A stretch of DNA of 64,000 nt from a virus (taxonomy: Duplodnaviria; Caudoviricetes). Location: IMG/VR virus record IMGVR_UViG_3300001525_000065, positions 45,712 to 109,711 of that record; one strand, 5' to 3'. Positions 2,580 through 58,232 of this stretch are shown one piece after another. A model generated the notes under the pieces. The model worked only from the letters and a program-made list of their open reading frames with translations, was not told where the DNA came from and searched no databases. The position numbers were made by a program, and so were the translations under genes. Numbering within the stretch: position 1 is the stretch's first letter; each line of letters begins with the position of its first letter.

Positions 2580-4424
2580 TCAGATCTTCAGACTCTCAGG
2601 CGCAATGTAGAAGTCATTATTATCTAGAGACAAAGCTATACCTGCATAATGGCAAATGCCTATCTTATTCTTATTATAATTAGCAGTAGCTGATGTAACA
2701 TCATTACTGAATACAAGGTCTACTACACCATTACGATAATCCACTGACGATGACACTAGTGGATCAGTACGATTTAGGTACATAACAGTAGCCATAGATC
2801 CCATACCATTCTCATCAGGATATCCATAATCTCGTAGCTCATACTTCATACCATTTATAACAACTGTAATAGATAGGGATCCAGGAGTTATGCTACCTAG
2901 ATTAGTGAAGGTTACTGAGTCATCAGATACAGTACCTGATAGCCCTGTTGCTTTCCCTGATATATCTTTAGCAGTAATTGATCCACCATTGTAAACTAGA
3001 TTATCAAGATTGACATATCTAATGCGAGAATCAGCATCCATTATCTCAGATACTAGATTCACATAATTAATTGGAGTATTGAATGAAACATTAGCTGTAC
3101 TATAAACATACTGAAGTCTAGTATTGATTTTAGTAAGAATCTCCTGCCCATCAGCTGCACTAACTGGTGCATGAAGATAGACTTCCCCAGTAGGTGACCA
3201 TTCATAGTACTGAATAACGTCTTCTGCATTTGGATCATTATGAAGATAGATATTAGTAGTAAGTGGAACACAAGTGAAGTCACGGATACTAGCATATATA
3301 GATGATTTGAAATTCTCTTTATCTGCAGCTGATCCTTCATCTACTTGTGCACTAGGAATGACATAGAGATTTATAGTATGCTTAGGAGTAGGATAGGGAT
3401 CAGTCATTATGTCAGTAGCTAGGCAATTATTTACGTTATCAAGTCTTAGCACTGCATTTTGGTAATCTCTAAGAGTGATAAGTGTATTGAGTGTATTGCG
3501 ATACTTATCTATGTTAAGTCTAGCTTCTTCAGGAGTCTCTGGATCAGATCCTGTAGTAGAAGCTGTATTGCTGATTAGTCTACGCTGAGGATCAGATAGT
3601 GTATTTTCATTTATGGAGCCATTAGATCCAAGTGACTGTAGGTAGAATAGTCTGAATGATCCCGGAGCTTCATAGCTACCTACTGCTTTATTCCAGTTCT
3701 GTGGGAACTGAATATAGGGAGTATCGTACTCATCTATATTTATCTCAAAGAATCTACCATCAGCTGATTCAAGATCAAGACTGATTCTACTAGTACCTGC
3801 ATAATCAGGGTACTGCCATTGAATACCTGTATCGTCAATGAGAAATATAGATTCTTCTGCAATAGCTGTACCTTTAGCGAAATAATATCTATTATCTACT
3901 ATATCTGATGCCATGATGTTAGGTAGATACTTATCATACCATACATCACTAGTAGGATTAGGATTAGTAGCTGGTAGCACTGGTGCACCTTGCATCAATG
4001 ACCAATTAGACGGAGTAGTTGTAAGCGTAATAGTTTGTAGATTAGAATACTTTATATTATTGGATGTAGTAAATACAGAGTATGGAGGAATTGTTTCGCC
4101 ACTAGATGAAGTTCTCTGGAATGATCCTTCACAAGTAGCAGATACATACCAATGCAATCTGTATCCTAGTAGTCCAAAGATCTGATTAGCATTCTTACGT
4201 TGAGTAACTGTAGCTGGATAAACCTCTAGAGCTTGCTTATCCTGTGTGTATGAGAGCATGTCACCTAGCATTGCCATAAGCTTGACTAACACAATACCTG
4301 GATCAGTTTCTTCTCTGCTAGTCCATTTATCAGTCATGGTAGGTATGGCTTTGTACAAATCTTCAAAGATGGATAAGTATTCTCGTGAGGTGTATCGAAG
4401 GCTACTTAATTCATTAGTATCCAT
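2580..4424 (-). CDS. baseplate wedge protein (gp6 / baseplate J-like)
   Basis: YTSREY, W..E.DPGIVL, D.LSY.QD.QA.E and GSDPET..R...LITLRDY motifs; follows the gp25-like gene. Confidence 0.85.
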   Translation of the reverse strand: MDTNELSSLRYTSREYLSIFEDLYKAIPTMTDKWTSREETDPGIVLVKLMAMLGDMLSYTQDKQALEVYPATVTQRKNANQIFGLLGYRLHWYVSATCEGSFQRTSSSGETIPPYSVFTTSNNIKYSNLQTITLTTTPSNWSLMQGAPVLPATNPNPTSDVWYDKYLPNIMASDIVDNRYYFAKGTAIAEESIFLIDDTGIQWQYPDYAGTSRISLDLESADGRFFEINIDEYDTPYIQFPQNWNKAVGSYEAPGSFRLFYLQSLGSNGSINENTLSDPQRRLISNTASTTGSDPETPEEARLNIDKYRNTLNTLITLRDYQNAVLRLDNVNNCLATDIMTDPYPTPKHTINLYVIPSAQVDEGSAADKENFKSSIYASIRDFTCVPLTTNIYLHNDPNAEDVIQYYEWSPTGEVYLHAPVSAADGQEILTKINTRLQYVYSTANVSFNTPINYVNLVSEIMDADSRIRYVNLDNLVYNGGSITAKDISGKATGLSGTVSDDSVTFTNLGSITPGSLSITVVINGMKYELRDYGYPDENGMGSMATVMYLNRTDPLVSSSVDYRNGVVDLVFSNDVTSATANYNKNKIGICHYAGIALSLDNNDFYIAPESLKI

Positions 4425-4810
4425 TAGTATCCCTCCCTAATGGCAAGCTGAAGCACTAATGTGTCTCTCATGCCAGTATTCTTTACTATATATGATAATT
4501 GTATGTATAGCTGACTCAGTCTCTGACCTATTGTTATGTCATTATGAGTCAAGGTAATTCTAGGTTCATAAGCAGTAACTGATGTGACTATATTAGTCTT
4601 TACTACATCAATCAATGCTAGGTCATTAGGTTCATATATTAATGATAGCAGATCAGTGCCATAGCCAGGATCACCAAGTAATTCTCCTGGTACTGTAGTC
4701 AGTAGGAGTCTAAGTGACTCATGAATGGACATTTGATCCTCTGCTATATTAGTCTTTCCTGTGATTGGATTGAAGCAAGTAGGATGTCTTATTGAATTAG
4801 ATAATGCCAT
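4424..4810 (-). CDS. baseplate wedge / sheath initiator (gp25 / gpW-like)
   Basis: LLLTT.PGE...P.YGT and YEPRI motifs. Start moved to the ATG at 4810, which has an AGGAGG SD. Confidence 0.85.
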   Translation of the reverse strand: MALSNSIRHPTCFNPITGKTNIAEDQMSIHESLRLLLTTVPGELLGDPGYGTDLLSLIYEPNDLALIDVVKTNIVTSVTAYEPRITLTHNDITIGQRLSQLYIQLSYIVKNTGMRDTLVLQLAIREGY

Positions 4811-4821
4811 TAGATACCTCC

Positions 4822-6345
4822 TTATACATCTCCTGTAAACTCTGTTCTGAAGTAGTATACTGGATTGACTATGCCATTCCATCTGTCAGAATTATAGTTT
4901 AATAGTAGTTCAAGGTGCAGATGAGCTCCAGAAGAGTTACCTGTATTACCTATGTATCCCAGTACCTGACCCTTGGTGACTGATTGATTAGCTACTACAT
5001 CTATTTTAGACAGATGGGCATATCTCAATGCAACTCCAGCTGATAGTTGATTAGTAGGCAATACATCTGAATCAGTAAGCTTAAGATCTATGCAATTGCC
5101 ATATGACCAATCTAATGCATAAGGACTATCATATACACCTTGTACTACTGACACAACTCCGCTGCATGGAGCTACTACTGGCTGACCATGTATATCCCAC
5201 TGTGATATATCAATACCTCGATGATTAGGATCATAGTTAGTAGGTCCAAATCTCTGAGTAATATTAGTGCAACTAGGCACTACCCAGTTAAGAGTGAAGT
5301 CAGCTGATCTTGCTGACTTATCATATGGAGATTCTACTAGATCAATAATAGTAGATGCACCTGGAGTGGCTATCTCTGTCATCAATCTACCATCTTCTTC
5401 ATAAGTCTTTATAGTCTGATACAAAGATTCAATAATCTCATACTGCTTACTAGACCATCTATGTGTAAGTAGCACTCTATGCATGTCATCGATAGAATAG
5501 CTAGTTGATAGAAGTCCATCAAGAGATGATAGTTCATCTTTAGTGAACGATGTACTGAGTAATGCATAAAAAGCTCTATTACTAGTGCCTTGGATACCTA
5601 CAGTCACTGCATCAGATAGATATTGAGATAGCTGATCTTGAGCATACTTCTTCTGAGCTGATATACCTTCATCGGATTCTAACAAAGTAGATATCTTCAA
5701 TGCATTAATTTTATTCACTGCAAAATCAGTGAATCCTTTAGATGCCTCATTAATAGTCCATTTATACATTGATCCTAGATACATCTGAGTGGCTATCTTA
5801 TTATCAGTATTGAGATCCATTATGATATTACTGAGATCAGTATCTGACCATAAGAAGAGTCCAAATTTATCATAGGATCCATTGGAATTTGCCTCAGTAG
5901 ATCCAAATGTTGTAATTCCACTATCTATGTATGCATCAAGTATTACGGAGCTAAGAGTACCTCCACGTAGCATGGATGGATCAGATGTATTAGATACCAC
6001 ATCTGAACCTGCACATAGTGTACCTAGGTAAATTGGGTACCTGATGTCTCCACCTTCAAATCCTACCCATACTACATCATTGACATCTGGTAATGCAGCT
6101 ACAGGTGAGTCACTACTTAATAGAGATTTAATGAAGCTAGTTGATTCAGTACCTAGTAATGGAGCACATACCTGAGCCCATGGTAGACCTTCATACACAT
6201 TACCCTTAGATCTGTATTCTCTTAATGCTTGATGATACGACGGTATCCATACCTGAATACGACCTAGGCTATCAGGATCTTCATTGGACACTACTATGGC
6301 TTTTACTAGTGAGAAGTGATTTTTGAATGTATTCTTATCGATCAT
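4822..6345 (-). CDS. baseplate central spike (gp5-like OB fold) fused to a C-terminal M23 peptidase
   Basis: N-terminal DP..LGRIQVWIP, LPWA and P...D.VWVGFEGGD..YP..LG; C-terminal HRGID, YAHL and G..GNSSGAHLH. Confidence 0.85.
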   Translation of the reverse strand: MIDKNTFKNHFSLVKAIVVSNEDPDSLGRIQVWIPSYHQALREYRSKGNVYEGLPWAQVCAPLLGTESTSFIKSLLSSDSPVAALPDVNDVVWVGFEGGDIRYPIYLGTLCAGSDVVSNTSDPSMLRGGTLSSVILDAYIDSGITTFGSTEANSNGSYDKFGLFLWSDTDLSNIIMDLNTDNKIATQMYLGSMYKWTINEASKGFTDFAVNKINALKISTLLESDEGISAQKKYAQDQLSQYLSDAVTVGIQGTSNRAFYALLSTSFTKDELSSLDGLLSTSYSIDDMHRVLLTHRWSSKQYEIIESLYQTIKTYEEDGRLMTEIATPGASTIIDLVESPYDKSARSADFTLNWVVPSCTNITQRFGPTNYDPNHRGIDISQWDIHGQPVVAPCSGVVSVVQGVYDSPYALDWSYGNCIDLKLTDSDVLPTNQLSAGVALRYAHLSKIDVVANQSVTKGQVLGYIGNTGNSSGAHLHLELLLNYNSDRWNGIVNPVYYFRTEFTGDV

Positions 6346-7622
6346 TTACTCACCTCTTCTTGTAACTTGAATAATTCAAAGTTAGTAGTAAGACCTGAAC
6401 TATCTAGTCTATCATAAGAAGATAGCACTGCATATGTACCTGCTGTATGATGTTCTTGATTGTGTATCAGTGGCCTTATCTGAAGCTTAGTAAGTATAGG
6501 TATCTCAGTTGGAATACCTATTGTAGATAATGTAGCTTTATATGGATACTCACGAATAAGATCCATCCACTTCTGATCTTTCCATGCAGCATCAGATGCT
6601 AGCTGATCGCCTACTTGCAGGTCATTACTACTTTCTACTGGAGTAGATGTAATTGATCCATCCGACTTAATACCATAAGTAGGTGTAGATGACTCTTTTT
6701 CTGCATCATAAGACATCAGCACCGATCCATCAAAGTCAGGTCTGAAGTCCCTGATAAGATTAAAATGATTAGACTGAGGTGAGCAATCCATCCAATCAAA
6801 AATAGTAGGAACTAATTCTGCAGATGGATTGCCTGCAGATGCAGATACCTTACGAATAATGAATTTCTTTTCAGTATCATCTACTTCGTATGTATAAGTG
6901 AATTTATCTCGAGCATCAGTAGTATCATCTTGAGTCTTATCCACTGCAGATGCCAATACATTATTTATCCATTCTACTAAAGTAGTACGTGACTTGGATA
7001 ATCCTAGTAGTTGAAGATCCACTACTTGGTCAGAGCCTACTACATTATCTGGATCAGAGAATTCATACTTGAATTGATCCTCAGTATCATCCATGACTTT
7101 ATTAAATACATTCTGCACTACTTGTGTAGGAGATAGATTCACTGATTCTTCATCAAGCTGAATGGTGATAATCCTGTTATTTAGTGCCACAATGCTGCTG
7201 TACCCATTCATGCTATATACTAAGAATCCATCACGAATCTCTGCAGTATATTTAGTAAGTAGACCATTGTATATAGGGGATCTCAAAGCAGTATGGGGCA
7301 TGGAGTACCCATACTGCAATGAGAACTGAGTCATATCAGCTTCAAGCCCTACTTTAGATAGAATCTTATCTATCTTATTTATATCTTCATTAACCTGAGG
7401 TCTCCATGCAATGACTAGTGTGAATGAGTTACATAGTCCTGATCCATTCTTCTTATTTTCAAATGATACTACATAGTTATTAGTAGGATCATCAGTGCAT
7501 AGTACCATATCTGGACGATTAGAGTTTCCTAGTACAATTCTGTACCATGGAGCATAGAATGGTGAGTATTGTAGTGTACTAGTTAAAGTAGATATGAAAT
7601 CACTGACTGGAGTATCACTCAT
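6342..7622 (-). CDS. baseplate hub protein (gp27 / late control D-like)
   Basis: Sits between the gp53-like and gp5-like genes; LQYGY, LSTIG.P and G.Y.V...D....G.TT.F.L pattern. Confidence 0.6.
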   Translation of the reverse strand: MSDTPVSDFISTLTSTLQYSPFYAPWYRIVLGNSNRPDMVLCTDDPTNNYVVSFENKKNGSGLCNSFTLVIAWRPQVNEDINKIDKILSKVGLEADMTQFSLQYGYSMPHTALRSPIYNGLLTKYTAEIRDGFLVYSMNGYSSIVALNNRIITIQLDEESVNLSPTQVVQNVFNKVMDDTEDQFKYEFSDPDNVVGSDQVVDLQLLGLSKSRTTLVEWINNVLASAVDKTQDDTTDARDKFTYTYEVDDTEKKFIIRKVSASAGNPSAELVPTIFDWMDCSPQSNHFNLIRDFRPDFDGSVLMSYDAEKESSTPTYGIKSDGSITSTPVESSNDLQVGDQLASDAAWKDQKWMDLIREYPYKATLSTIGIPTEIPILTKLQIRPLIHNQEHHTAGTYAVLSSYDRLDSSGLTTNFELFKLQEEVSK

Positions 7623-23727: not shown

Positions 23728-26700
23728 TTATGCCAGTATCGCGCCTCTGCAATACATATTGCTATTGATCATGCGCTTACCATAGCTCATCATCCATGCA
23801 CGACGTCCTACAAGGTCATCAGTGCGAAGGAGATCAGAAGGAGTAATGGGAAGGAAAGGACAATATACATCGTTTGTGTTACTGCTACTTCGTTTCCAAG
23901 TAGCATCACTAAGTTTCCTTAGTGACCAGACTATATCATTACCTCATGTATTATGATGAGGTATCTCACACTTTGAACTCACTTGAGTCCTACAGAGTTG
24001 CCACTCTTAGTCGTTGAACTTTCTACTTATACATAATGTATAAGATAGCTTAGCTGCTGATTATCCATTGTTGCAAGAGGTTAGATTACTCATACTCTTA
24101 TACTGAAGATTCTTTCTGCTTTCGCTGCATTCGCACTTGCCATCACTGGCTATGTTGTAGCTCTTCAGCCTTTAGGAGTTTCCAGCAATTCATGAGATTT
24201 TCAATGACCAGTCACCTGGCCATGGGACTGTTTAGTAACCAATTGCTTATGCAGCTTTATTAGTACTAGTTAATCCTGCATCAAAGAGACCTGTACCTCT
24301 GTATCCAAGCACGTACTCATTAGCAGGGAAGTCAGGAGATACATATACAGTGAACTGCCCATAAGTGCCAAGGAGGTAAGGACCTACACCTGCATTACCG
24401 CTAGGAACAAAGTTACGAGAAGCAGAGATAACTGCTGCTACGCCAAGTCCACATACGAGAACATTCTATTCATTCAATAAGAATCGTTACTTCTTATTCG
24501 TGTATCATACATGCACTGCTAATCATTTCTGACTAGAATAGACTATATCTTCATCATGGCATCTATTACCAATGACATGATGCTCATCATTTTGATCTTA
24601 CTTAAGATCTACTCTACTTGCTTCTTCACTAGTGGATTTCTCACTAGTTATGCTTTCGATAGTCGTTGAACTTCTACTCATGACTAATCATGATGTAGTA
24701 GCTGCTGATTGTCCATGTATCTCAATAATTCTCAAGCATTCACACTTGTCATCACTGACTATGTTGTAGCTTATTGAGCTTTAGGAGTTTCCAGCAATTA
24801 GATGAGTTTAGACAGACCGATGTTACGCAGCCTGTACCTTGCGAGTATTCTGATAGATGATGTTGCTACCTTCAAGAAGTCTAGCATAGAAGGAGTCATA
24901 GTGGTCAAGGAGTGAAATGGCAGTGGGCTGAGCCTTAGACCATGCAGTGTTAGTAGCGCCTGCCTGAGCAAGAAGGTCTCCGCATACCTCCATATCCACT
25001 TCATGTGCTAGCTCACCAGCAACCTCAGCTGCCATTAGAGCATCGATCTGATTTCCATCATTTATGTTAGCTAGTCATTTCTGACTAGATCAGACTATAT
25101 CTTCATCTCATTGTCAGTGAGATGTCATTCATTTCGATTTAAGGGGATCTCACCCACTCATCATGTATTGTGATGAGCCCTACTCCTATAGAATAGTTTA
25201 TGTCAGTCTATTCCTTATAATTGGGATAGTCGTTGAACTTTATCCTATTCGGATTTTAGCTGCTGATTGTCCATTATGGAGATGTTTAGGATTTAACCAT
25301 GCATCATATACTCATTTCTTTTTACTTTCGTAGCATTCACACTTGTGCTTATTTCATCACTATGTTGTAGCATGAGTATCTTTGGGAGTTTCCAGCAATT
25401 AGAATGATTTATTATTGTACTCATCACTGAGTACCGGAGCTTGGCTTTCAGATGATCGCTAACTCCTTCTCGAACTGAAGCGCAGCACTGAGGGAATAAA
25501 GAGATTTAATGGTACGATCCTTAGCTACGATCGGAAGAGATTCAATAGAGAGCTGAACCTCAGGAACTGCAGCAGGAGCATACTTATTGTTATAAGTGTA
25601 TGTAGCAGTCCATGTACCTGCACCAGGAGCAGCAGTGAAGGTAAGTGCGCCAGTTGCATAGTCAATAGAACCAGCATCAGTGCCGCCCTTCTTGAGGTTG
25701 CCATTACCATCATCAGTGTAGACATTAGTGCCTTCAGTGATGTTGACAGATCCAGGAGCTACAGGAATCCATGCAAGAGATACAGTCGTATCAGTTGCAC
25801 CAAGTGCAAGAACTTCACCATCAACAAGTTCTGCAGTGTAGTTCTCATCAGACTGACCACCATAGATGGACGTCATGAAGGTGTCACCTGCTTTAACCTG
25901 ACCCTTGTTGGATCCATAGTTATACTTAATATAATTTACCATACCTACGCGAGCAGACCAATTACCTTACAAATACATCGTATCCACGTATTCTCTACAT
26001 ATTACTATGTAGTTGAGACTATATCATCATCTGAAGTACTGTTACTATACATCAGATGCTTCGCACTTCGATTTAAAGGATTTATCATGAGTTATTATCG
26101 CTCATGTACCTACCACTTGGCTCTACTCTACTCAGTTATTCACTAGTGTATTTCTCACTAGTTATCCTTTCGATAGTCGTTGCTCCTCTAGTACTACTCA
26201 GGGCACTAGAGGATCAGGATTGTCCATGTACTGCGTAACTTTACATGGAGGTTCCCTGAGTTCACGAAGTTTATCATAATAGATCACTCTATTATGCCAC
26301 CTCATTGATGGGCTGCACTGAAACTAGATCGTACATAATGGTGTTAGGTACCATTGCATTAACGATATCCACATTTATCTTACGAATGTATCGTATCCAT
26401 ACATTCTCTATACATTACTGTATAGATGAGACTATATCACATTCTCATTGACTCTTCACCAATGAGAACCTCACCATTTCGATTTAAAGGATTTACCATA
26501 AGCTAATCTCACTCATGTACCTACCACTTGGCTCTACTCTACTAGCTTATCATCACTGTCATATCTCAGATTAATTAGTGATTATGCTTTCGATAGTCGT
26601 TGAACTACCATCCTGCATCTAGATGATAGCTGCTGATTGTCCTAGAACTAGTTAATGATCATCCTGGGAGTTCCCAGCAATTAAGTGAGTTTGCATAACT

Positions 26701-28490: not shown

Positions 28491-28960
28491 CTCACTTCCT
28501 TTCCATTATCTTTATTGGTTATTGACTTTATCATAGATCGCAATGTATCAAATGTAGATAACATTGCATTAGTATCATCCATAGAGTACTTAGACAATGC
28601 AGATGATACTGAATGAATTTGCATCTCGCTGAGCAGCTTATGCCTAGATGCGTCATCTAGTGATTTACTAGCTATAAGTACTCGAGTGATGTACGATGAT
28701 AATGCAATAGCTTTATCAACATCAGATGCAGATTCATTCACTAATGATTTATATAAAGGATTCTTATGACGTCTGTCATAAATATCATTCACTACTGTCT
28801 CATTAAGACTAGTAGAAGCTGATTCATAAGAGCTAATGAACTCTAGAATAGATGAATCTATAGTAGATGATGAAGCCAGCTTAGTTAGATAAGATGATAC
28901 ATCTGCATGATGAGTATCTCTTATCTCAAATAATTTCTTATAACATGTTAGCCTATCCAT
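28487..28960 (-). CDS. hypothetical head-module protein
   Basis: Coupled ORF between portal and protease. Confidence 0.5.
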   Translation of the reverse strand: MDRLTCYKKLFEIRDTHHADVSSYLTKLASSSTIDSSILEFISSYESASTSLNETVVNDIYDRRHKNPLYKSLVNESASDVDKAIALSSYITRVLIASKSLDDASRHKLLSEMQIHSVSSALSKYSMDDTNAMLSTFDTLRSMIKSITNKDNGKEVR

Positions 28961-30753
28961 TATTCTACCTCACCTGAGTAATCACCAAATTCTTCATCAC
29001 TAGCAGTAACTGATCCTGGAGGAGTACTGGTCAGTTCATTCTCATCACTGGATGACTCAATAGGACTAGTAGTCTCGCCAGAGGGAGCAGTTACATCTAT
29101 ATCAATATCATGTGATGGACTTCCACTAATAGGAGTAGATCCGAAGTCACCTGCATCATTGAACTCTTCTTGACCTACTTCATCTTCAGGTGCATCTCTG
29201 AGAATATCTACTAGCTCCGGATCATTCATGAACTGATTAAGCAGATACTCAAATACATCTCTCTTAGTATCATCTGTATATGCCTCACCAAGTAGCTGCA
29301 TAATTGCATCAGTGATGTCTAACTTAGTTCTGAGTGTCTCATCACGCTCAGCATCCTCAGTAGTACTAGGTGATACCATCTTGACTGAGAAGTTATTCAC
29401 ATAATCAGTGAATCCTCTATCAATGGCATATAAATTAAGTAGAGTAGTTATACCTGCGATGTATGCATTCTGTACTCGTTGTACTGATCTAGCATATCTA
29501 GCATCTACTTTAGTAGCGCTTACTCCACCTGAGAATCCATTATCTGGACTATCTAGTCCTAAGTACTGTCTAGGAATTCTGAATCCAGCTGCAAGCTTAT
29601 TAGCATAGTGATCTACATCAGTGATGGATCTTACATCAATATCTCCACCTAGTGACTGGAAACTGATAGCACCTTTACCATTACGAGTAGTAGAATACAC
29701 TACATTATCAATAGGTCCAGGAGCAGCTTGTGACTTATATGTATCACTGTTCTTATCCATCAGATTCTTCTGCTCGACCATGTTCTTTACACGTTTTAGT
29801 AGTTCATTAACACGGTTCTTAGGCATGTCACCTACTTCTATCTGAAGGAATCTGATAATAGCTGACCTAGATGCACGATTCATTACTAAGCTATCTTCCA
29901 TCAATGATAGATCTTGATAAGTACTGTATACATTCTCTAGTAGAGATCTACCTCTCTTGACTCTGAATGTTTCATTAGTGACTTCACCTTTACCATTCTT
30001 TATCTGAAGAGTGATAGTCTCAGGCACTCTCTCAGTACCTGCAGCTAGATAGATATGCACATAAGACTTCTCATCATAGAGATTATCAGTAGTATCAATC
30101 CAGTATCTGTTATTATATAAGTATTGATTAGCGCCATCCACTGCTTCTTCAGTAGGAGTAGGTGTCTCAGCGAATCCAACTGTCTTACCTCTGTAGACTA
30201 TATCAAATATATCTGCAGGATTAGGCACTTGCTCTACATACTCAGAGTAGATGTACCCTTTCTTGACCTTATTGAGTATGAGTCCATCTTGATTGATCTT
30301 ATGAACAGCATTATCTGAATCATAATGCAGTTTGAGATATACATCTCCATACATGCATAATGAGTAGATGTGACTCCATGCATTATCATTAATGCCTAAT
30401 ACATCTAGCAATCTATTGCAGAATGCAGCAGTATTCTGATCCTCACTCTCTACCCATATAACTTGACCTTGTCTATTTGATGGAGTAGCATCATCTGCAT
30501 ACATCTCAATAGCAGATGAAACTAGTGCATCCTGTACCATTCGATCATAAGCTCTGTATCTCTCATTACGAGATGTAGCTAATGTACGAAATCCATTAAG
30601 TGCATTACGATCTAGAAGAGTAGTACCATCTACTTCGAATAGATCAACTAATCCAGCTCTAGCTATCGATGTATTATCAATAGCATCTGTATTAGCTTTT
30701 ACTCTAAGTCCTAGTGCCTCACGTAGTCTAGTACCTAGTGGTTTATTAGCCAT
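28960..30753 (-). CDS. portal protein (gp20-like)
   Basis: Y..M..D..V.SA...YADD, YGD, GRSLLE, L..MED....R..R, I.VG.MP and .P...LG motifs. Confidence 0.93.
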   Translation of the reverse strand: MANKPLGTRLREALGLRVKANTDAIDNTSIARAGLVDLFEVDGTTLLDRNALNGFRTLATSRNERYRAYDRMVQDALVSSAIEMYADDATPSNRQGQVIWVESEDQNTAAFCNRLLDVLGINDNAWSHIYSLCMYGDVYLKLHYDSDNAVHKINQDGLILNKVKKGYIYSEYVEQVPNPADIFDIVYRGKTVGFAETPTPTEEAVDGANQYLYNNRYWIDTTDNLYDEKSYVHIYLAAGTERVPETITLQIKNGKGEVTNETFRVKRGRSLLENVYSTYQDLSLMEDSLVMNRASRSAIIRFLQIEVGDMPKNRVNELLKRVKNMVEQKNLMDKNSDTYKSQAAPGPIDNVVYSTTRNGKGAISFQSLGGDIDVRSITDVDHYANKLAAGFRIPRQYLGLDSPDNGFSGGVSATKVDARYARSVQRVQNAYIAGITTLLNLYAIDRGFTDYVNNFSVKMVSPSTTEDAERDETLRTKLDITDAIMQLLGEAYTDDTKRDVFEYLLNQFMNDPELVDILRDAPEDEVGQEEFNDAGDFGSTPISGSPSHDIDIDVTAPSGETTSPIESSSDENELTSTPPGSVTASDEEFGDYSGEVE

Positions 30754-30773: not shown

Positions 30774-32240
30774 CTAGAATATTAAGAAGTCATCGTCATT
30801 GTTATACAACAAATCAGATATCTCATCATCAGTAACTTTCCATCGATCCTTAGGATCTATCTTGTTACGTACATCAACTACTGATGTATCTATTTGATTC
30901 TCATCCATTACTGCATTTAACTCAGCTTCAATAGCTTCATCAGTCAACTCAGGTTTATCATCCATATGAGTAGATGGATCATCAAGTAATGCATTAGCTG
31001 CAGATGCATCAGTAGTAGGTTTATCATCAGTATTAGCATCCATTACATTGTATGCATCATCAGATAGATAAATCTGATCACTGCAGTCATACTGAGATGC
31101 ATTGAATAATGCAGCTGCAAGACTGTCCAGACCATCTTTTGAGCCTTTACCGTCATATGTATGATCGATCTTACCTGTCATGTTATTACGTTCTACATTA
31201 ACCATCTCTAGTACTAATTCATGTATGTTCAATAGACTTACACGTTTCTCATTGATAGCTGACTTAAGACACATGTATGCATCTGGAGTTCTATCAACTG
31301 ATAGTAGCTTAGCAGGATATCCAGCATTCTGAAGTATCTGTATGTTATCACGAGATTGGAATCCATCCTGAGTGATACCACATATATTAAATCCAGATTC
31401 CTTCAGATAGTAGATGAATTGTCTATTCTTCTCAAGTGATATCTCATCACCAGATGGACATTGAATAAACACAGTAAAGATATGAGCGAATTGCATCTCA
31501 TGTACTGGGACTGCTTCACCTACATCATTATCGAATCTATCAACCTTTCTTGTACCGGTAATAGCTACCATAGATATACCAGTACGGTCACCTGTTAATG
31601 ACCCATCTATGTGTAAGAAGCAGGGTTTGCTCCTCAGTACTAAATTCACCAATTTAGGATTAAAGTAGTCTGACAATGATTGTGAGTCGTGACAACCTAT
31701 TGTCAATACAGGTGTAGTGAATGGATTAGTACGAGGTCCAAATGCCTCTTTTATACGATCATACACTAAGAATTTAGTAGTCAGTGATGAGCTAATACCT
31801 GCATAATCCATTAGTGATGTATCTACATCAAGATCAAATGCAGACTTGAACTCAATAGGTACCTCTATGATCTTATAACCTTGATTAGCCATAGCTACCT
31901 GATCATCTTCATCAGTCATTACTCTACTACGTAGTATCTTATTACCTACTGCTACTAGGAACTTCTTACCTGAATAGATGTTACTAGGCTTTACATTCCA
32001 TTGAGGTTCATCTATGACTAGTACAGATGGATTATCTTTGACTGTCTGTATATATGACTCAAGGAAGTCTTGTTCACTCTTCTTAGATGATACTAGGAAT
32101 AGCTTAGCTGCTAGGTCACCACCATCTCGTAGGAATCGAGATTCCATACGACGCTTTATGGCACGATATGACTTCATGATCTTGGACTTCTCAAATTGTA
32201 CATCAGCTCCTCCCACGAAGTCTACCTCATCCAATAAAGC
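30774..32240 (-). CDS. terL: terminase large subunit, C-terminal part (Walker B onward plus RNase H-like nuclease)
   Basis: ALLDEVDF Walker B, LVSS coupling motif, HID.S..GD.TG, D.FQS and KIDH…SKD..D. Walker A and the N-terminus are missing. Confidence 0.9.
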   Translation of the reverse strand, partial: ALLDEVDFVGGADVQFEKSKIMKSYRAIKRRMESRFLRDGGDLAAKLFLVSSKKSEQDFLESYIQTVKDNPSVLVIDEPQWNVKPSNIYSGKKFLVAVGNKILRSRVMTDEDDQVAMANQGYKIIEVPIEFKSAFDLDVDTSLMDYAGISSSLTTKFLVYDRIKEAFGPRTNPFTTPVLTIGCHDSQSLSDYFNPKLVNLVLRSKPCFLHIDGSLTGDRTGISMVAITGTRKVDRFDNDVGEAVPVHEMQFAHIFTVFIQCPSGDEISLEKNRQFIYYLKESGFNICGITQDGFQSRDNIQILQNAGYPAKLLSVDRTPDAYMCLKSAINEKRVSLLNIHELVLEMVNVERNNMTGKIDHTYDGKGSKDGLDSLAAALFNASQYDCSDQIYLSDDAYNVMDANTDDKPTTDASAANALLDDPSTHMDDKPELTDEAIEAELNAVMDENQIDTSVVDVRNKIDPKDRWKVTDDEISDLLYNNDDDFLIF

Positions 32241-32250
32241 TCATGATCTA
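32241..32250 (-). other. 10-nt coding gap TAGATCATGA between IntC-Cys and the TerL Walker B codons
   Basis: TGC | TAG ATCA TGA | GCT TTA TTG GAT GAG. Removing the 10 nt gives HN-C-ALLDEVDF. Confidence 0.85.
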
Positions 32251-32382
32251 GCAATTATGAGATACTATATAATTATCATGATCACATTTTACTAAGAAGT
32301 TATGATAAGGATTAGCATTTATAACGTCATATACTGGTATTGGATTATCATAATGAATATGTGATACTTTAGTTACTCTCAT
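32251..32382 (-). CDS. split-intein C-fragment (IntC, 43 aa) plus +1 Cys, heading TerL-C
   Basis: Strong SD AAGGAGGTGAT, then MRVTKVSHIHYDNPIPVYDVINANPYHNFLVKCDHDNYIVSHN-C. Contains intein block F (VYD..HNF) and block G (SHN|C). Confidence 0.9.
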
Positions 32383-32395
32383 AATTACTTGATCA

Positions 32396-32563
32396 CCTCC
32401 TTCACAAATGTATTATAAATCTTATCTAGCAGTATGCATAGTAATGCATTTGAATATATGAGATGACTAGTGAAGGAGATAGTCATCCATACTTCATTTA
32501 CTTTACTATGTATACTTATCTCATAAGGTCATGAGTCTTATGCTACCTAGATAAGAATTTATA
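32396..32563 (-). promoter_or_regulatory. structured 5' leader of IntC-terL with an anti-SD hairpin loop
   Basis: Long-range stem 32547-63/32414-29. Hairpin GAUGACUA-UCUCCUUCAC-UAGUCAUC whose loop is complementary to the SD GUGAAGGAGG. Confidence 0.6.
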
Positions 32564-35795: not shown

Positions 35796-36472
35796 TTACT
35801 GGCATCAGATGCAGGTAGTTGTTCCAGAGCATATACCACTTTCTTATCTCTACGATAAACTAGCGCACCTACTTCCACATCTGTAAGGCTGGTCATGCTT
35901 GATTCATCATCAGCTACAAAGATCTGAGGAGTAGCTCTAGCACTCTTATTAAGATCAGGATCTCTTACAAATGATCGAGTAACTGCATCATAATAATAGT
36001 ACACTGTATCCTGATTATAATTCTTATCATGCACTACCTTGATTACTTTACCATTAGCTAGGAAATCAGAAGGTAGTCTAAGCATCGAATCGAAAGTAGG
36101 TACTACTATGAATTTATCAGCATCTGGATTAAGATAAGATGATGCTTGGTAAGTAAGTGTTAATTCATAACTGCTAGTCAATACATCAATATCATCTGCA
36201 ATAAGCGTTATGATGAACTTACATGAGATAACCTTATTAGGTTCAACTAGATCAGATGGAATTGATACATCTCCATTAGCATCTAGTTCTATTCTCTCAG
36301 ATGTAAGTCCAGTATCATTTATCATGTATTGCATCTTGTACTTGTCAGTAGTGTAATTATCTGGATAATTAGTACGAATAACATATGTATCAACTATTGT
36401 TGGATCAACCTGAATGACTGACCATGCATCACCACTAGCAAATCCATTCGAGTTAATATCTATATTAATCAT
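35753..36472 (-). CDS. putative virion structural protein
   Basis: C-terminal segment (LTDVEVGALVYR.D…ASNW) resembles fibre-associated domains. Confidence 0.4.
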   Translation of the reverse strand: MINIDINSNGFASGDAWSVIQVDPTIVDTYVIRTNYPDNYTTDKYKMQYMINDTGLTSERIELDANGDVSIPSDLVEPNKVISCKFIITLIADDIDVLTSSYELTLTYQASSYLNPDADKFIVVPTFDSMLRLPSDFLANGKVIKVVHDKNYNQDTVYYYYDAVTRSFVRDPDLNKSARATPQIFVADDESSMTSLTDVEVGALVYRRDKKVVYALEQLPASDASNWQNTAPIWKSIKE

Positions 36473-36870
36473 ACATACTCCTTACCTAGTGCTAGAGGTC
36501 TACATAGCCTACGAATCTCATCCTCAATGATGAATGTGTTCTGACTGAGCTTATCAGTATCCATGGTCCTAGCACTAGTTACTGACTGACCAGTCATGAG
36601 ATTGATCTTATCCTTATTGATCTCGACAATAACCTGATCATCCTTAGGTTCACAAGGTTTAGCTACTGCAGAATTGCCTCTGATTACTCGATTGATAGCT
36701 GCAGCAGTATCAATGGTAATTTGATAAGGGCAGTCAACTCCAGTAATAGTATTGTAATTGATAAGTTCATTGAGTATCTCAGCTAGGTCACCTGACTTGA
36801 GTACTTTCATCACATTATCAAATCCAATGCCAGTAGTCATAATTGCTTCATTGACTCTCTTTACTCTCAT
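36469..36870 (-). CDS. hypothetical protein
   Basis: ORF overlapping its neighbours. Confidence 0.5.
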   Translation of the reverse strand: MRVKRVNEAIMTTGIGFDNVMKVLKSGDLAEILNELINYNTITGVDCPYQITIDTAAAINRVIRGNSAVAKPCEPKDDQVIVEINKDKINLMTGQSVTSARTMDTDKLSQNTFIIEDEIRRLCRPLALGKEYV

Positions 36871-37876
36871 TCATTTTATCCTCACTTTCATTAGAATTAT
36901 TCCTAGGTCTGTATGCTCTCATCTTCTTATGAGTGTAGTGCCTACGTACCTGGTACTTAGAAAACTCACAAAAGATATTCTCTAGTGACATTATATTTAT
37001 ACATCTGTCATATTCTAGTAGATCATAGAATAATTCATTAGGATTATAATGCAGATGATTCTGATTAAAGATACTAGCTAGATTATCTCTAATCCAGAAT
37101 AAAAGCTCATCATCTGATAATCCATCTAAGTCAGTTATCAACATATGCAATCCATATGAGCATCCAGGTCCACTGACTACAAATTCATTCTCACTAAATG
37201 GAAATTCATCTATGTAGCATAGATCTACATAGAACTGATAAGCTAAGAATGATCCACATCCAAAGATGCTATGTTGTAATAAATTATACACATCTACTTG
37301 ACTATTGCATGATAACAATTTATCAGCTAGTCCATTCTGTATAAGATCTCTAGTTATGTATAATGGAGCATACTGGGATTGACTAGAATAGTCCAGATCA
37401 TACTTCTTACAGTTATGTATTCTGAATCCAATAGTCTTGTATGCATTAGTGTAATATAATGCATTAGTAACTGAATCAAGAGCAGTTATGCATCGATCAA
37501 TCCATCCATCAGTAAATCTGATAGGAAGATCAAGCAGCTCACCAGTAGTATCTACATTATACATTCTATACAGCAATGTATTGTAAATTCTATCTGATAA
37601 ACTAAATGAATCATTGTTACTTATGTGATTGATCAGCCATTTACTGCATCTGTCATGCTCACGTCTTACCTGAGTGAATCTTAGCCTACTTAGTATTGGA
37701 TCAGTAGTCCATGGACTAGGTAGTTGCAATACATCTTTCTTTATATGTATTGAGTATCTTTCGTGGATATAGTAGTGCAGTAGTTTAAGCATCTCAAGAT
37801 CATACGATGGATGAGCATTATGGATCTTAGATTCATCCACATTGCAATAATGTATGTCACTAGGTTTAGTTATCAT
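36848..37876 (-). CDS. aGPT-Pplase1-family (5hmdU kinase helical domain) DNA base-modification enzyme
   Basis: ER..I..KK….PWT.DPIL..RFT.V.RE.DR, G.FLAYQ..D, GPG…GL and EN..CE..KY motifs. Confidence 0.8.
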   Translation of the reverse strand: MITKPSDIHYCNVDESKIHNAHPSYDLEMLKLLHYYIHERYSIHIKKDVLQLPSPWTTDPILSRLRFTQVRREHDRCSKWLINHISNNDSFSLSDRIYNTLLYRMYNVDTTGELLDLPIRFTDGWIDRCITALDSVTNALYYTNAYKTIGFRIHNCKKYDLDYSSQSQYAPLYITRDLIQNGLADKLLSCNSQVDVYNLLQHSIFGCGSFLAYQFYVDLCYIDEFPFSENEFVVSGPGCSYGLHMLITDLDGLSDDELLFWIRDNLASIFNQNHLHYNPNELFYDLLEYDRCINIMSLENIFCEFSKYQVRRHYTHKKMRAYRPRNNSNESEDKMNESKESQ

Positions 37877-45357: not shown

Positions 45358-46284
45358 TTAATCAAAGTATCCCTCAGTATCATCAGAAGTAATCATGACT
45401 CCATGATCAAACCAGATATTCCGATTCTTCACTTCTGCATCTGGATGAGCCTCTATGTATCTCTTCTCAGCAATACGAATTGCAGCTTTAGCGGTCTTAA
45501 CTGAATCATAATCCTTATTACCAGGCATGACATTGTATTTACCATCTTCAGTAGGAGTGATCTTCCATGTAGATGCATAACCATGAATAACAATAGGATT
45601 ATTATCCTCAACTATCTTCTTAGATTCACCAAATTCAAATGCAAGGTCATCAGCAGCCATAGATAGTTCATCTGCTTGATTCATGAGATACTCATCGATG
45701 AACTCACCACGCGCATCTTTATCCATCCAATTGCTATTGCGTAGTCCTACTACATCAAGTTCTCTCCATGGAGCTTCATCACCTAGCTCAGCTACTTCAT
45801 CCTCATCTTTGAATACTTCGATAAGGAGCGCATCATTTATGTCATAAACAAAGTTATGACCTTTATACTTGTAGAACTTGTATCTCTCTTTATCAGTAAT
45901 ATCCACTCTAGGGAAATACTTGTCATTGAACTGATCATCAGCCTCAGTAAGCTTAGCAGTCTTAGCTATCTTCTTAGACTCACCTAGGAATATAATACCT
46001 GCATCAACCATAGCTGCAGTAAGCTCAGGAGTTATCTCATCTTCATTTACCTCAATGGTAATGTACTTACTAGCATCTCTAAGTGGAATTTCAGTCTGAG
46101 CACTACCATAGCCAGATGGACCTGCATGACCTGTGAGCATTAGTTTACCATCAAGGATATCTATGTCAGTATCCCATGGCATAGGAAAGTCATCAGATAC
46201 TGGAGTGATGGTGAGCTCAGCATCAATCATTTCATCATAGAGTTCATGATCCAGCTTAGTCAGTTTAGAAATATCAATCTTCAT
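45358..46284 (-). CDS. acidic hypothetical protein, possibly virion-packaged
   Basis: Modules separated by GESKKI repeats. Confidence 0.5.
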   Translation of the reverse strand: MKIDISKLTKLDHELYDEMIDAELTITPVSDDFPMPWDTDIDILDGKLMLTGHAGPSGYGSAQTEIPLRDASKYITIEVNEDEITPELTAAMVDAGIIFLGESKKIAKTAKLTEADDQFNDKYFPRVDITDKERYKFYKYKGHNFVYDINDALLIEVFKDEDEVAELGDEAPWRELDVVGLRNSNWMDKDARGEFIDEYLMNQADELSMAADDLAFEFGESKKIVEDNNPIVIHGYASTWKITPTEDGKYNVMPGNKDYDSVKTAKAAIRIAEKRYIEAHPDAEVKNRNIWFDHGVMITSDDTEGYFD

Positions 46285-57392: not shown

Positions 57393-57471
57393 TGGTGGAA
57401 CTTATAGGACTCGAACCTATGACCTTCCATGCATACCCACAGGTGGCTCTACCGAACTGAGCTAAAGTTCC
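57393..57471 (-). tRNA. tRNA-like RNA with an aberrant anticodon arm (isotype undetermined)
   Basis: Perfect acceptor stem GGAACTT/AAGTTCC, D arm GCTC/GAGC, T arm ATAGG-TTCGAGT-CCTAT and encoded CCA. The anticodon arm is non-canonical. Confidence 0.75.
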
Positions 57472-58146: not shown

Positions 58147-58232
58147 TGGTGGAGATAGAGAGATTCGAACTCTCATGCTCTAGGAGCAAAGGCTTCTAAG
58201 ACCTTCATGTCTACCAGTTCCATCATATCTCC
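58147..58232 (-). tRNA. tRNA-Leu(UAG)
   Basis: Acceptor GGAGATA/TATCTCC, anticodon arm AAGGT-CTTAGAA-GCCTT, long variable arm, GAGAG-TTCGAAT-CTCTC, A73 and CCA. Confidence 0.92.

Follow-up and report, generated by a model that had tools for sequence, protein, structure and literature searches.

The gene for the terminase large subunit (terL) described here lies partly in a 64,000-nucleotide (nt) stretch of viral DNA (Duplodnaviria; Caudoviricetes), positions 45,712 to 109,711 of IMG/VR record IMGVR_UViG_3300001525_000065, which is referred to throughout as the window and supplies all window coordinates. The locus is read on the minus strand, where a short open reading frame (ORF) for the C-terminal fragment of an intein (IntC) is followed by the C-terminal part of the terminase (TerL-C), and a coding gap of 10 nt separates the two (Table 1). 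The gap is probably a programmed translational bypass site, a short 'stop-hop', whose joined product would then be trans-spliced to an N-terminal half encoded 75 kb away.

The gapped terminase locus

At the junction, ...TCT CAT AAT TGC is followed by TAGATCATGA and then by GCT TTA TTG GAT GAG GTA GAC TTC; an earlier note on this DNA, made from the sequence alone, had reported a stop-flanked 10-nt gap at an intein +1 junction, and the sequence at 32241–32250 is exactly as it described. The IntC ORF begins with its own ATG (32382–32380), carries the motifs ...PVYDV...HNF... and ends in ...IVSHN followed by Cys, the first residue of the C-extein (Cys+1). The first triplet of the gap, TAG (32250–32248), closes the upstream frame directly behind the Cys codon, and its last triplet, TGA (32243–32241), closes the downstream frame directly before GCT. 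Since there are stops in both frames, any path from one to the other must skip at least 10 nt, and neither a deletion of 1, 4 or 7 nt nor readthrough can join them.

Removal of the gap gives HN|CALLDEVDF, with no residue gained or lost relative to ungapped and unsplit relatives. The ungapped IntC junctions read CALMDE in Streptococcus phage GXN1, CAMLDE in Bacillus phage HSE3 and CGLLDE in SP-15, and an unsplit relative contains ...VFCALLDEVNF (in the fuller reading, ...NVFCALLDEVNF). TerL-C of the window is 44–49% identical to the TerL of HSE3, SP-15 and unsplit relatives. Related loci are referred to below by L numbers.

Table 1. Features of the terL-C locus and its surroundings (window coordinates)
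Feature	Position	Strand	Basis and remarks
IntC ORF with the Cys+1 codon of the C-extein	32251..32382	-	ORF list, sequence; IntC is 43 residues, 44 codons with Cys
Shine-Dalgarno sequence GGAGG of the IntC ORF	32396..32400	-	sequence; kept in L006 and L007
Proposed take-off codon UGC (TGC; Cys+1, splicing nucleophile of the C-extein)	32251..32253	-	sequence
10-nt coding gap	32241..32250	-	sequence; identical in L006 and L007
Resume codon GCT	32238..32240	-	opens ALLDEVDF, the Walker B motif
Terminase large subunit, C-extein	30774..32240	-	488 codons and stop; rest of the ATPase and the nuclease domain; PHROG 9 terminase
Portal protein gene, directly downstream; head-packaging module	28960..30753	-	Pfam Portal_T4, E = 1.8e-51
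Predicted structured 5' leader of the IntC/TerL-C mRNA	32383..32556	-	~95% identical to L007, where coding synonymous sites are near saturation
TATAAAT, start of the conservation with L007	32557..32563	-	alignment

A split intein in a multiply interrupted gene

The earlier note had placed the gap at an intein junction, and its location at Cys+1 holds; what it missed is that the window has no more than the C-half of an intein that is naturally split, the N-half (IntN) of which lies outside the window, and that the gap is one of a family of variable gaps linked to a mobile IntC cassette. The genome (C1), a virus record of 109,711 bp, has direct terminal repeats and encodes the N-terminal part of the terminase (TerL-N) together with IntN at 3222–539 on the minus strand, ~75 kb from TerL-C. 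IntN (C1 832–542) reads CLVGST...TPDH after ...GQDVF and gives weak matches to Pfam Hint and Intein_splicing. The features of a split intein are all present, namely separate ORFs, Cys1 and a TxxH block in IntN, an IntC ending in HN, and Cys at +1. In GXN1, HSE3 and SP-15 a homologous short IntC is joined in frame to TerL-C, and in HSE3 a gene of its own, just upstream of IntC/TerL-C, is annotated for the N-extein with IntN.

TerL-N is itself broken by three inserts: a full intein (Pfam Intein_splicing, 4e-21, with a weak, sub-threshold HNH_3 match), a 317-nt intervening sequence before the Walker A exon, without an Rfam match but bounded by a U at the end of the 5' exon and a G as its own last base, and a group I intron of 341 nt (60.7 bits in Rfam). 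Five separate corrections would thereby appear to stand between this one essential gene and its product: protein splicing once in cis and once in trans, RNA splicing at two sites, and a ribosome hop. There is a single copy of terL in the 109.7-kb genome by TBLASTN with split and unsplit TerL queries, and Pfam Terminase_6N and Terminase_6C have no match in the genome.

Further split or intervening elements were seen in the course of these comparisons. The group I intron of terL-N is 68–80% similar to several segments of the capsid-gene region (window 24000–26600, minus strand; C1 69.7–72.3 kb). The HSE3 IntC with the start of its extein also matches L005 weakly in TBLASTN (C1 ~35967–36212, plus strand; E = 5e-4), and a second C-fragment of a split intein may lie there, in a different gene. 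In GXN1 (L001, vB_SagM-GXN1), the terL-C ORF at 3950–6911 is unannotated, and its nuclease domain holds a second split intein that is absent from the annotation of the record (...DHPPNS|CLVEDT... with a long insert, and a separate ORF with ...LVVHN|SKDISD...).

Conservation of the ten nucleotides

The same 10 nt as in the window are found in the close relatives L006 (an ENA contig; TerL-C 97% identical in amino acids) and L007 (a Logan contig; 79% identical). The 90%-identity cluster to which this TerL-C protein belongs has 13 members, drawn from assemblies at JGI, ENA and Logan and lying on contigs of up to 109.7, 101 and 81.5 kb, and none of the 13 proteins begins with IntC. Between the window and L007, both flanking ORFs are under purifying selection (dN/dS, the ratio of nonsynonymous to synonymous substitution rates, 0.18 at dS 0.875 for IntC; 0.21 at dS 0.68 for TerL-C), and none of the ten gap bases differs, which for ten neutral sites has a chance of ~1e-3. 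The flanking codons show synonymous changes only, AAT to AAC before the gap and TTA to CTT in the Leu codon after it, and both codons between the gap and TTG remain in frame in L007. As the change from TTA to CTT lies upstream of the first possible start of the downstream frame, it argues that this Leu is translated by ribosomes arriving from upstream.

Because the identical 10 nt occur in independent assemblies, the gap is evidently neither an assembly error nor a private mutation. That terL is a dead gene, inactivated by an insertion in a defective phage, or that the gap is an artefact, would be in keeping with a metagenomic record of 63% CheckV completeness; with the same gap in assemblies from three sources, strong purifying selection on the gap and on both ORFs that flank it, direct terminal repeats in the genome and no second terL, the idea has next to no likelihood.

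Sixteen gap variants in relatives

Gap variants were read from the DNA of every TerL-C lineage that was fetched; P0011, P0015, P0025, P0026, P0049 and other clusters of proteins with truncated starts lie outside this set. In viral contigs, a single-protein scan yielded no relatives, and these were recovered with an alignment query. Sixteen distinct variants were found, with gaps of 4, 6, 7, 8, 9, 10 or 11 nt after extein codons +1, +2, +3, +4, +6, +7 or +8 (Table 2). In all 16, an in-frame stop stands right behind the last homologous codon, and removal of the gap restores the consensus C-(G/A)-(I/L/M)-(L/M)-D-E-(V/I/M)-(D/N)-F.

Table 2. Gap variants, with the last codon before and the first codon after each gap
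Extein codon	Codon before	Gap	Codon after	Found in
+1	TGC	TAGATCATGA	GCT	window, L006, L007
+1	TGC	TGACCATGA	GGA	L009
+1	TGC	TAACGATGA	GGA	L013
+1	TGC	TAACTATGA	GGA	L014
+1	TGC	TGAATGC	GGG	L011
+2	GGT	TGAAGGGC	TTA	L118
+3	CTG	TAGCTG	ATG	L115
+4	ATG	TGAGGAAATT	GAC	L033
+6	GAA	TGACCTCGGAA	GTT	L117
+7	ATT	TAGATT	AAT	L016
+7	ATG	TAAATG	AAC	L116
+7	GTC	TAGCATAGGTT	AAC	L037
+7	GTT	TAGCTTAAGTG	AAC	L039
+7	GTA	TGAG	AAC	L114
+8	GAC	TGAT	TTT	L112
+8	GAT	TAGTGAC	TTT	L113

The last triplet of the gap equals the codon before the gap, the putative take-off codon, at bases 1 and 2 in 15 of the 16 variants, a match with a chance of ~1e-14, or ~8e-8 under a conservative count of 8/9 independent events, and all seven kinds of difference between take-off and landing triplet fall at base 3 (chance 5e-4). 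The two triplets co-vary at position +7 (AUU>AUU, AUG>AUG, GUC>GUU, GUU>GUG), and elsewhere the pairs UGC>UGC (L011/L012), CUG>CUG and GAA>GAA are cognate, with UGC>UGA of the window matching at two of three positions. The codon before the gap is TGC in all five variants in which the gap follows Cys; in the ungapped IntC relatives L001, L002, L003, L018 and L030 it is TGT. TAA makes up 3 of the 16 gap stops against 56% of the gene stops of the window phage, and the base after the gap stop is C in 7/16 (9% of the gene stops of the phage) and T in 2/16 (52%), so that the gap stops look like weak terminators.

Every frame class is represented among the gap lengths, and two stops lie in frame within the gaps of 9 nt, which leaves no frameshift or readthrough mechanism common to the family. 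For the window, the frame arithmetic does permit UAG to be read through and the ribosome then to shift by +1 at AUG A GCU, giving C-X-I-M-ALLDE, and L112, L113 and L114 can be read by a single +1 shift with one or two extra residues; this would, however, take two rare events within four codons in a genome without a suppressor tRNA, add three residues to a Walker B strand whose length is invariant in all relatives, and fail for the two-stop 9-nt gaps and for the 11-nt gaps with a stop-closed target frame, and it is accordingly rated as highly improbable. Two simpler candidates were rejected outright: a prfB-type +1 or -1 frameshift has no open path, with TAG closing frame 0 and TGA closing the target frame, and stop reassignment or simple readthrough fails as the frames differ by one and TAA, TGA and TAG all end genes in the window phage.

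It has also to be asked whether the gap is corrected in the DNA itself, a fraction of the replicating genomes dropping it by slippage between short repeats (TG...TG) and so supplying a functional terL. Direct repeats of 2–3 nt do flank every gap; slippage on 2-nt repeats is very rare, fitter ungapped revertants should take over, whereas 13 related sequences all have the gap and it is still fixed at 79% identity, and neither the obligatory stop nor the codon phase would be explained. Such heterogeneity is therefore given very little credence.

No cultured phage with a gapped allele in this terL family was found among the junctions examined (65 tblastn matches, with LIS04 left out; HSE3, SP-15 and GXN1 are ungapped), and the nearest cultured relatives infect Bacillus, Listeria and Streptococcus. 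Many public TerL-C homologues are called as starting at MDEV.F, and a protein search for truncated IntC ORFs returned one cluster only; small ORFs are seldom called. Within one 90%-identity cluster of TerL-C proteins (P0154–P0163), the called start is MDE(V/I)DF in some and MKSISDF in others, which suggests that gap positions may differ among near-identical genes, as was read directly for L117 and L033.

Association with IntC and mobile DNA

A maximum-likelihood tree was built from 59 TerL-C sequences, and in it a gap is never seen except next to IntC: none of the 30 unsplit genes is gapped, and one TerL-C clade is gapped in 14 of its 14 members. Close sisters have their gaps at different positions, as in L117 (+6) and L033 (+4), L114 (+7) and L014 (+1), and L013 (+1) and L016 (+7). 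The DNA of L117 and L033 is 98% identical for 900 nt downstream of the gap, 64–90% identical in IntC and ~40% identical further upstream, and this break in identity coincides with the gap, marking it as a recombination breakpoint. Genes for GIY-YIG/NUMOD3 endonucleases lie directly upstream of IntC in the L009, L011, L014, L114 and L116 types.

From this pattern we infer that IntC, often with a nuclease gene, may move as a cassette of which the gap is the 3' boundary, and that the cassette in the window genome may have a similar history. By analogy, the gap would disrupt the nuclease target in the invariant Walker B DNA, just as the 50-nt gap of T4 gene 60 disrupts the target of MobA.

Several other elements were noted at or near this site. 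In L041 a group I intron (101 bits; L041 1244–1464) sits in the Walker B codons and ends right before GAC GAG, and two int-alpA RNA matches flank the locus (177–241 and 2839–2906). L061 and L066 carry an unclassified insert at ~760–940 that ends before GAA TGT GAT. Tad2-like (anti-Thoeris) genes lie just upstream of IntC in L112 (1482–2207), L113 (930–1409), L117 (791–1300) and L033 (916–1320). The slot before IntC seems to collect accessory and selfish genes.

Proposed translational bypassing and its alternatives

In the mechanism proposed here, a ribosome translating the IntC ORF would come to stand with UGC, the codon of Cys+1, in its P site and UAG in its A site. The peptidyl-tRNA-Cys would detach, the mRNA would slide by 10 nt, the anticodon would re-pair with UGA at two of three positions, and decoding would restart at GCU. 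The product would be one polypeptide, IntC-Cys-ALLDEVDF...TerL-C, with the predicted junction peptide ...SHNCALLDEVDF (...NYIVSHNCALLDEVDFVGGADVQFEK as a target for liquid chromatography–tandem mass spectrometry). Trans-splicing of this fusion with TerL-N-IntN would then yield an intact terminase, predicted to read ...DVF-CALLDEVDF and so to have a normal Walker B strand.

A stop in the first triplet together with a wobble-tolerant triplet match is the signature expected of a peptidyl-tRNA that leaves its codon at an A-site stop and re-pairs downstream, and UGC>UGA of the window is the near-cognate version of UGC>UGC in L011/L012. The earlier note had put forward bypassing from UGC to a near-cognate UGA as one of two candidate mechanisms, and the conserved gap, the cognate geometry in sister lineages and the co-varying triplets support it. 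The refuting conditions that the note had named also went its way, as close relatives have the gap and the genome has no second terL. All gaps lie 1–8 codons after IntC, which is suggestive of a contribution from the IntC peptide, since this would fill the exit tunnel at take-off.

A number of observations weigh against bypassing. The UGA landing is only near-cognate for tRNA-Cys, with a G.A pair at the wobble position, and no stimulatory RNA structure was found around the window gap (58-nt fold z = +0.39; L007 z = +0.79), such a structure being a hallmark of gene 60 rather than of short hops. Termination at UAG would free IntC-Cys, which could enter a dead-end splice that consumes TerL-N-IntN, so that the phage needs either an efficient hop or tolerance of the loss; stop-hops of synthetic design have a low efficiency (PMC5009743). 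L114 (GUA ... GAG) breaks the triplet-matching rule and could be a +1 frameshift. Several +1 variants have ATG or TTG with a GAGG-like sequence two codons past the gap, where independent initiation is conceivable. Lastly, no nuclease gene adjoins IntC in the window lineage.

Strong hairpins are found in some sister variants only (L016, z -4.3; L033, z -2.5), and with z-scores this heterogeneous and a window gap without any structure, local RNA structure was discarded as a general signal. The UGA-landing +1 variants have in common a 5-bp CUCAU/AUGAG pairing. An 8-nt repeat, GATCATGA, 35 nt upstream of the window gap was likewise set aside, being absent from L007.

Initiation past the gap leads to the alternative of a two-piece terminase, in which the UAG stop frees IntC-Cys and TerL-C starts at the TTG two codons past the gap (MDEVDF...), the pieces associating non-covalently or TerL-N being merely capped with Cys. 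Gene callers do put starts at MDEV.F in many relatives, and L009, L013 and L014 have GAGGA 3–4 nt before the ATG or TTG at extein codon +4. GAGG is, however, automatic where UGA precedes a Gly codon GGN, the window and L007 have no Shine-Dalgarno sequence before TTG, and L011 has no start codon there. In addition, the codons between the gap and TTG stay in frame with synonymous changes only, the matched triplets in codon phase are left unexplained, and the break would fall inside the Walker B β-strand (VF|CALLDE), which would presumably need covalent continuity. A two-piece enzyme is thus considered unlikely.

The second candidate of the earlier note was excision of the gap from the RNA, with U|G boundaries and the product CSLLDE; in a wider form, the 10 nt would be removed as a micro-intron, by a trans-acting group I ribozyme or by another RNA-guided excision, with the conserved leader or a capsid intron as guide. 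Group I introns abound in the genome (TerL-N contains one, to which inserts in the capsid region are related), and excision of AGAUCAUGAG would follow the U|...G rule and yield CSLLDE. Excision at the same U|...G boundaries leaves the frame unrestored in sister gaps of 9 and 6 nt, 10 nt are too short for a ribozyme (the true group I intron elsewhere in this gene has 341 nt), and Rfam has no match at the site. Of the two potential guides, a segment of the capsid intron is able to pair on either side of the gap, but no better than chance would allow (its strand has six sites of similar quality, against 2.15 expected for a random one), and the CUCAUGA of the leader is complementary to the 3' end of the gap, but pairing beyond the 7-bp palindromic core is lost in L007 and this leader is missing from sister lineages. 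Since excision would require neither an in-frame stop in the first triplet nor triplets matched in codon phase, this candidate is left without support, and RNA-level removal is regarded as quite improbable.

Comparison with known recoding systems

The precedent closest in kind is the Streptomyces phage Hau3, whose terL was listed by Smith et al. 2013 as a bypass candidate together with the prophages StrepC.1 and S. catenulae (PMC10732093); it answers to the Streptomyces phage case that the earlier note had mentioned. The Hau3 terminase has two 10-nt inserts, and a junction peptide was identified by mass spectrometry in E. coli with a UAA variant (PMC10732093). Both systems have short (7–10 nt) frame-disrupting inserts in an essential phage terL, the flanks of which are adjacent in relatives and for which bypassing has been proposed. 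On our reading of the g6/g7 and g7/g8 junction peptides, the Hau3 inserts also sit at nucleotide-binding motifs. The A-site trigger in Hau3 is the rare sense codon UUA, with a proposed regulatory role via the host bldA tRNA, whereas here it is a true stop (TAG, TGA or TAA); the terminase families are unrelated in sequence, the present one belonging to low-GC relatives of Bacillus, Listeria and Streptococcus phages; and only here is the site a split-intein +1 junction with 16 natural variants whose triplets co-vary.

T4 gene 60 resembles the window in having a stop (UAG in both) directly after the take-off codon and a landing triplet before the resume codon (PMC5009743; bioRxiv 10.1101/2022.08.31.505936), with take-off after ~45 codons of a short ORF. 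In both, the gap stands at the edge of a mobile cassette able to carry a GIY-YIG nuclease (the mobA cassette in T4) and interrupts conserved DNA that is the likely target of the nuclease. In contrast to the 50-nt gap of T4, with its dedicated RNA and peptide signals and identical landing codon, the window has a 10-nt gap with no detectable take-off stem-loop and a near-cognate landing codon, and its joined product is predicted to need trans-splicing as well; there is no sequence homology between the two.

Synthetic stop-hops in E. coli (Weiss et al. 1987), in which matched codons flank a stop so that 9 nt are read as one residue (reviewed in PMC5009743), have exactly the form of L115 (CUG UAG CUG), L016 (AUU UAG AUU) and L116 (AUG UAA AUG). 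These were engineered and inefficient, whereas the present gaps are natural and conserved in an essential gene, and the 10-nt gap of the window changes frame. The 2016 review knew of no natural in-frame stop-hop (PMC5009743). The byps of Magnusiomyces capitatus are likewise many short inserts that are corrected at translation, with two-of-three codon matching tolerated (PMC5009743), but they are 27–55 nt long, mitochondrial, have an unused A-site codon and affect many genes, against eight codons of one phage gene here.

As in the fractured genes of Dassa et al. 2009 (PMC2677866), an essential phage gene (in their set including terminase) is split into N-extein-IntN and IntC-C-extein ORFs, with GIY-YIG genes beside the intein halves in several of the present relatives. 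In the window genome, unlike in those genes, 75 kb without a nuclease gene lie between the halves, and the gap additionally cuts IntC off from its extein. For spacers of hundreds of bases, Dassa et al. considered bypassing only as an unlikely alternative (PMC2677866). Searches of the literature on bypassing with terminase, homing endonuclease or coding gap returned no description of this gap family. What is unusual in it is the take-off proposed on the Cys+1 of a split intein, the near-cognate UGA landing and the rich series of natural variants.

Leader, tRNAs and DNA modification

The predicted leader of the IntC/TerL-C mRNA has a consensus fold of -48.8 kcal/mol, without compensatory changes, that comprises a closing stem and a long hairpin, and it matches no Rfam family. 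The hairpin loop, UCUCCUUCAC (32479–32470), is complementary to the Shine-Dalgarno region of the IntC ORF, and the leader may be a translational control element that sequesters the Shine-Dalgarno sequence. The TATAAAT at its upstream end is, from its likeness to the T4 late promoter consensus, a candidate T4-type late promoter.

No suppressor tRNA or phage tRNA-Cys is present among the tRNA calls in the whole genome, of which there are two: a 79-nt tRNA-like gene at 57393–57471 (minus strand), in which ARAGORN places four anticodon bases, gggt (Pro|Thr), on a weak anticodon stem, and next to it a tRNA-Leu(tag) at 58147–58232. A homologue of the 5-hmdU DNA kinase is encoded at 36848–37876 (minus strand; Pfam HMUDK_hel, 1e-57) and is found in L007 also, so the DNA of the phage probably contains hypermodified thymidine.

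Implications

Programmed bypassing is textbook-rare, the cases being T4 gene 60, the yeast mitochondrial byps and the candidate in Hau3. The 16 variants amount to a ready-made mutational scan of the rules of short hops, covering 4–11 nt, three stops, cognate and near-cognate landings and seven positions. They also carry a warning for annotation, as gene callers truncate such terminases (the MDEV.F starts) and calls of completeness or of 'defective phage' may mislead. A hop at the Cys+1 nucleophile would set the amount of splice-competent IntC-extein, possibly a new regulatory layer of protein trans-splicing.

The locus ties bypassing to split inteins and homing endonucleases and supports the view of coding gaps as immunity scars of selfish DNA. 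A more tentative proposal, possible though short of probable, is that the gaps belong to a new class of mobile 'stop-hop' elements: IntC cassettes driven by homing endonucleases, whose tiny untranslatable 3' insert among the invariant Walker B codons would immunise the carrier genome against the nuclease and would be tolerated through an efficient hop between triplets matched at two of three positions, perhaps primed by the IntC peptide. If this were true, efficient short-range bypassing would be a general and evolvable property of the bacterial ribosome that the selfish elements of phages have repeatedly exploited.

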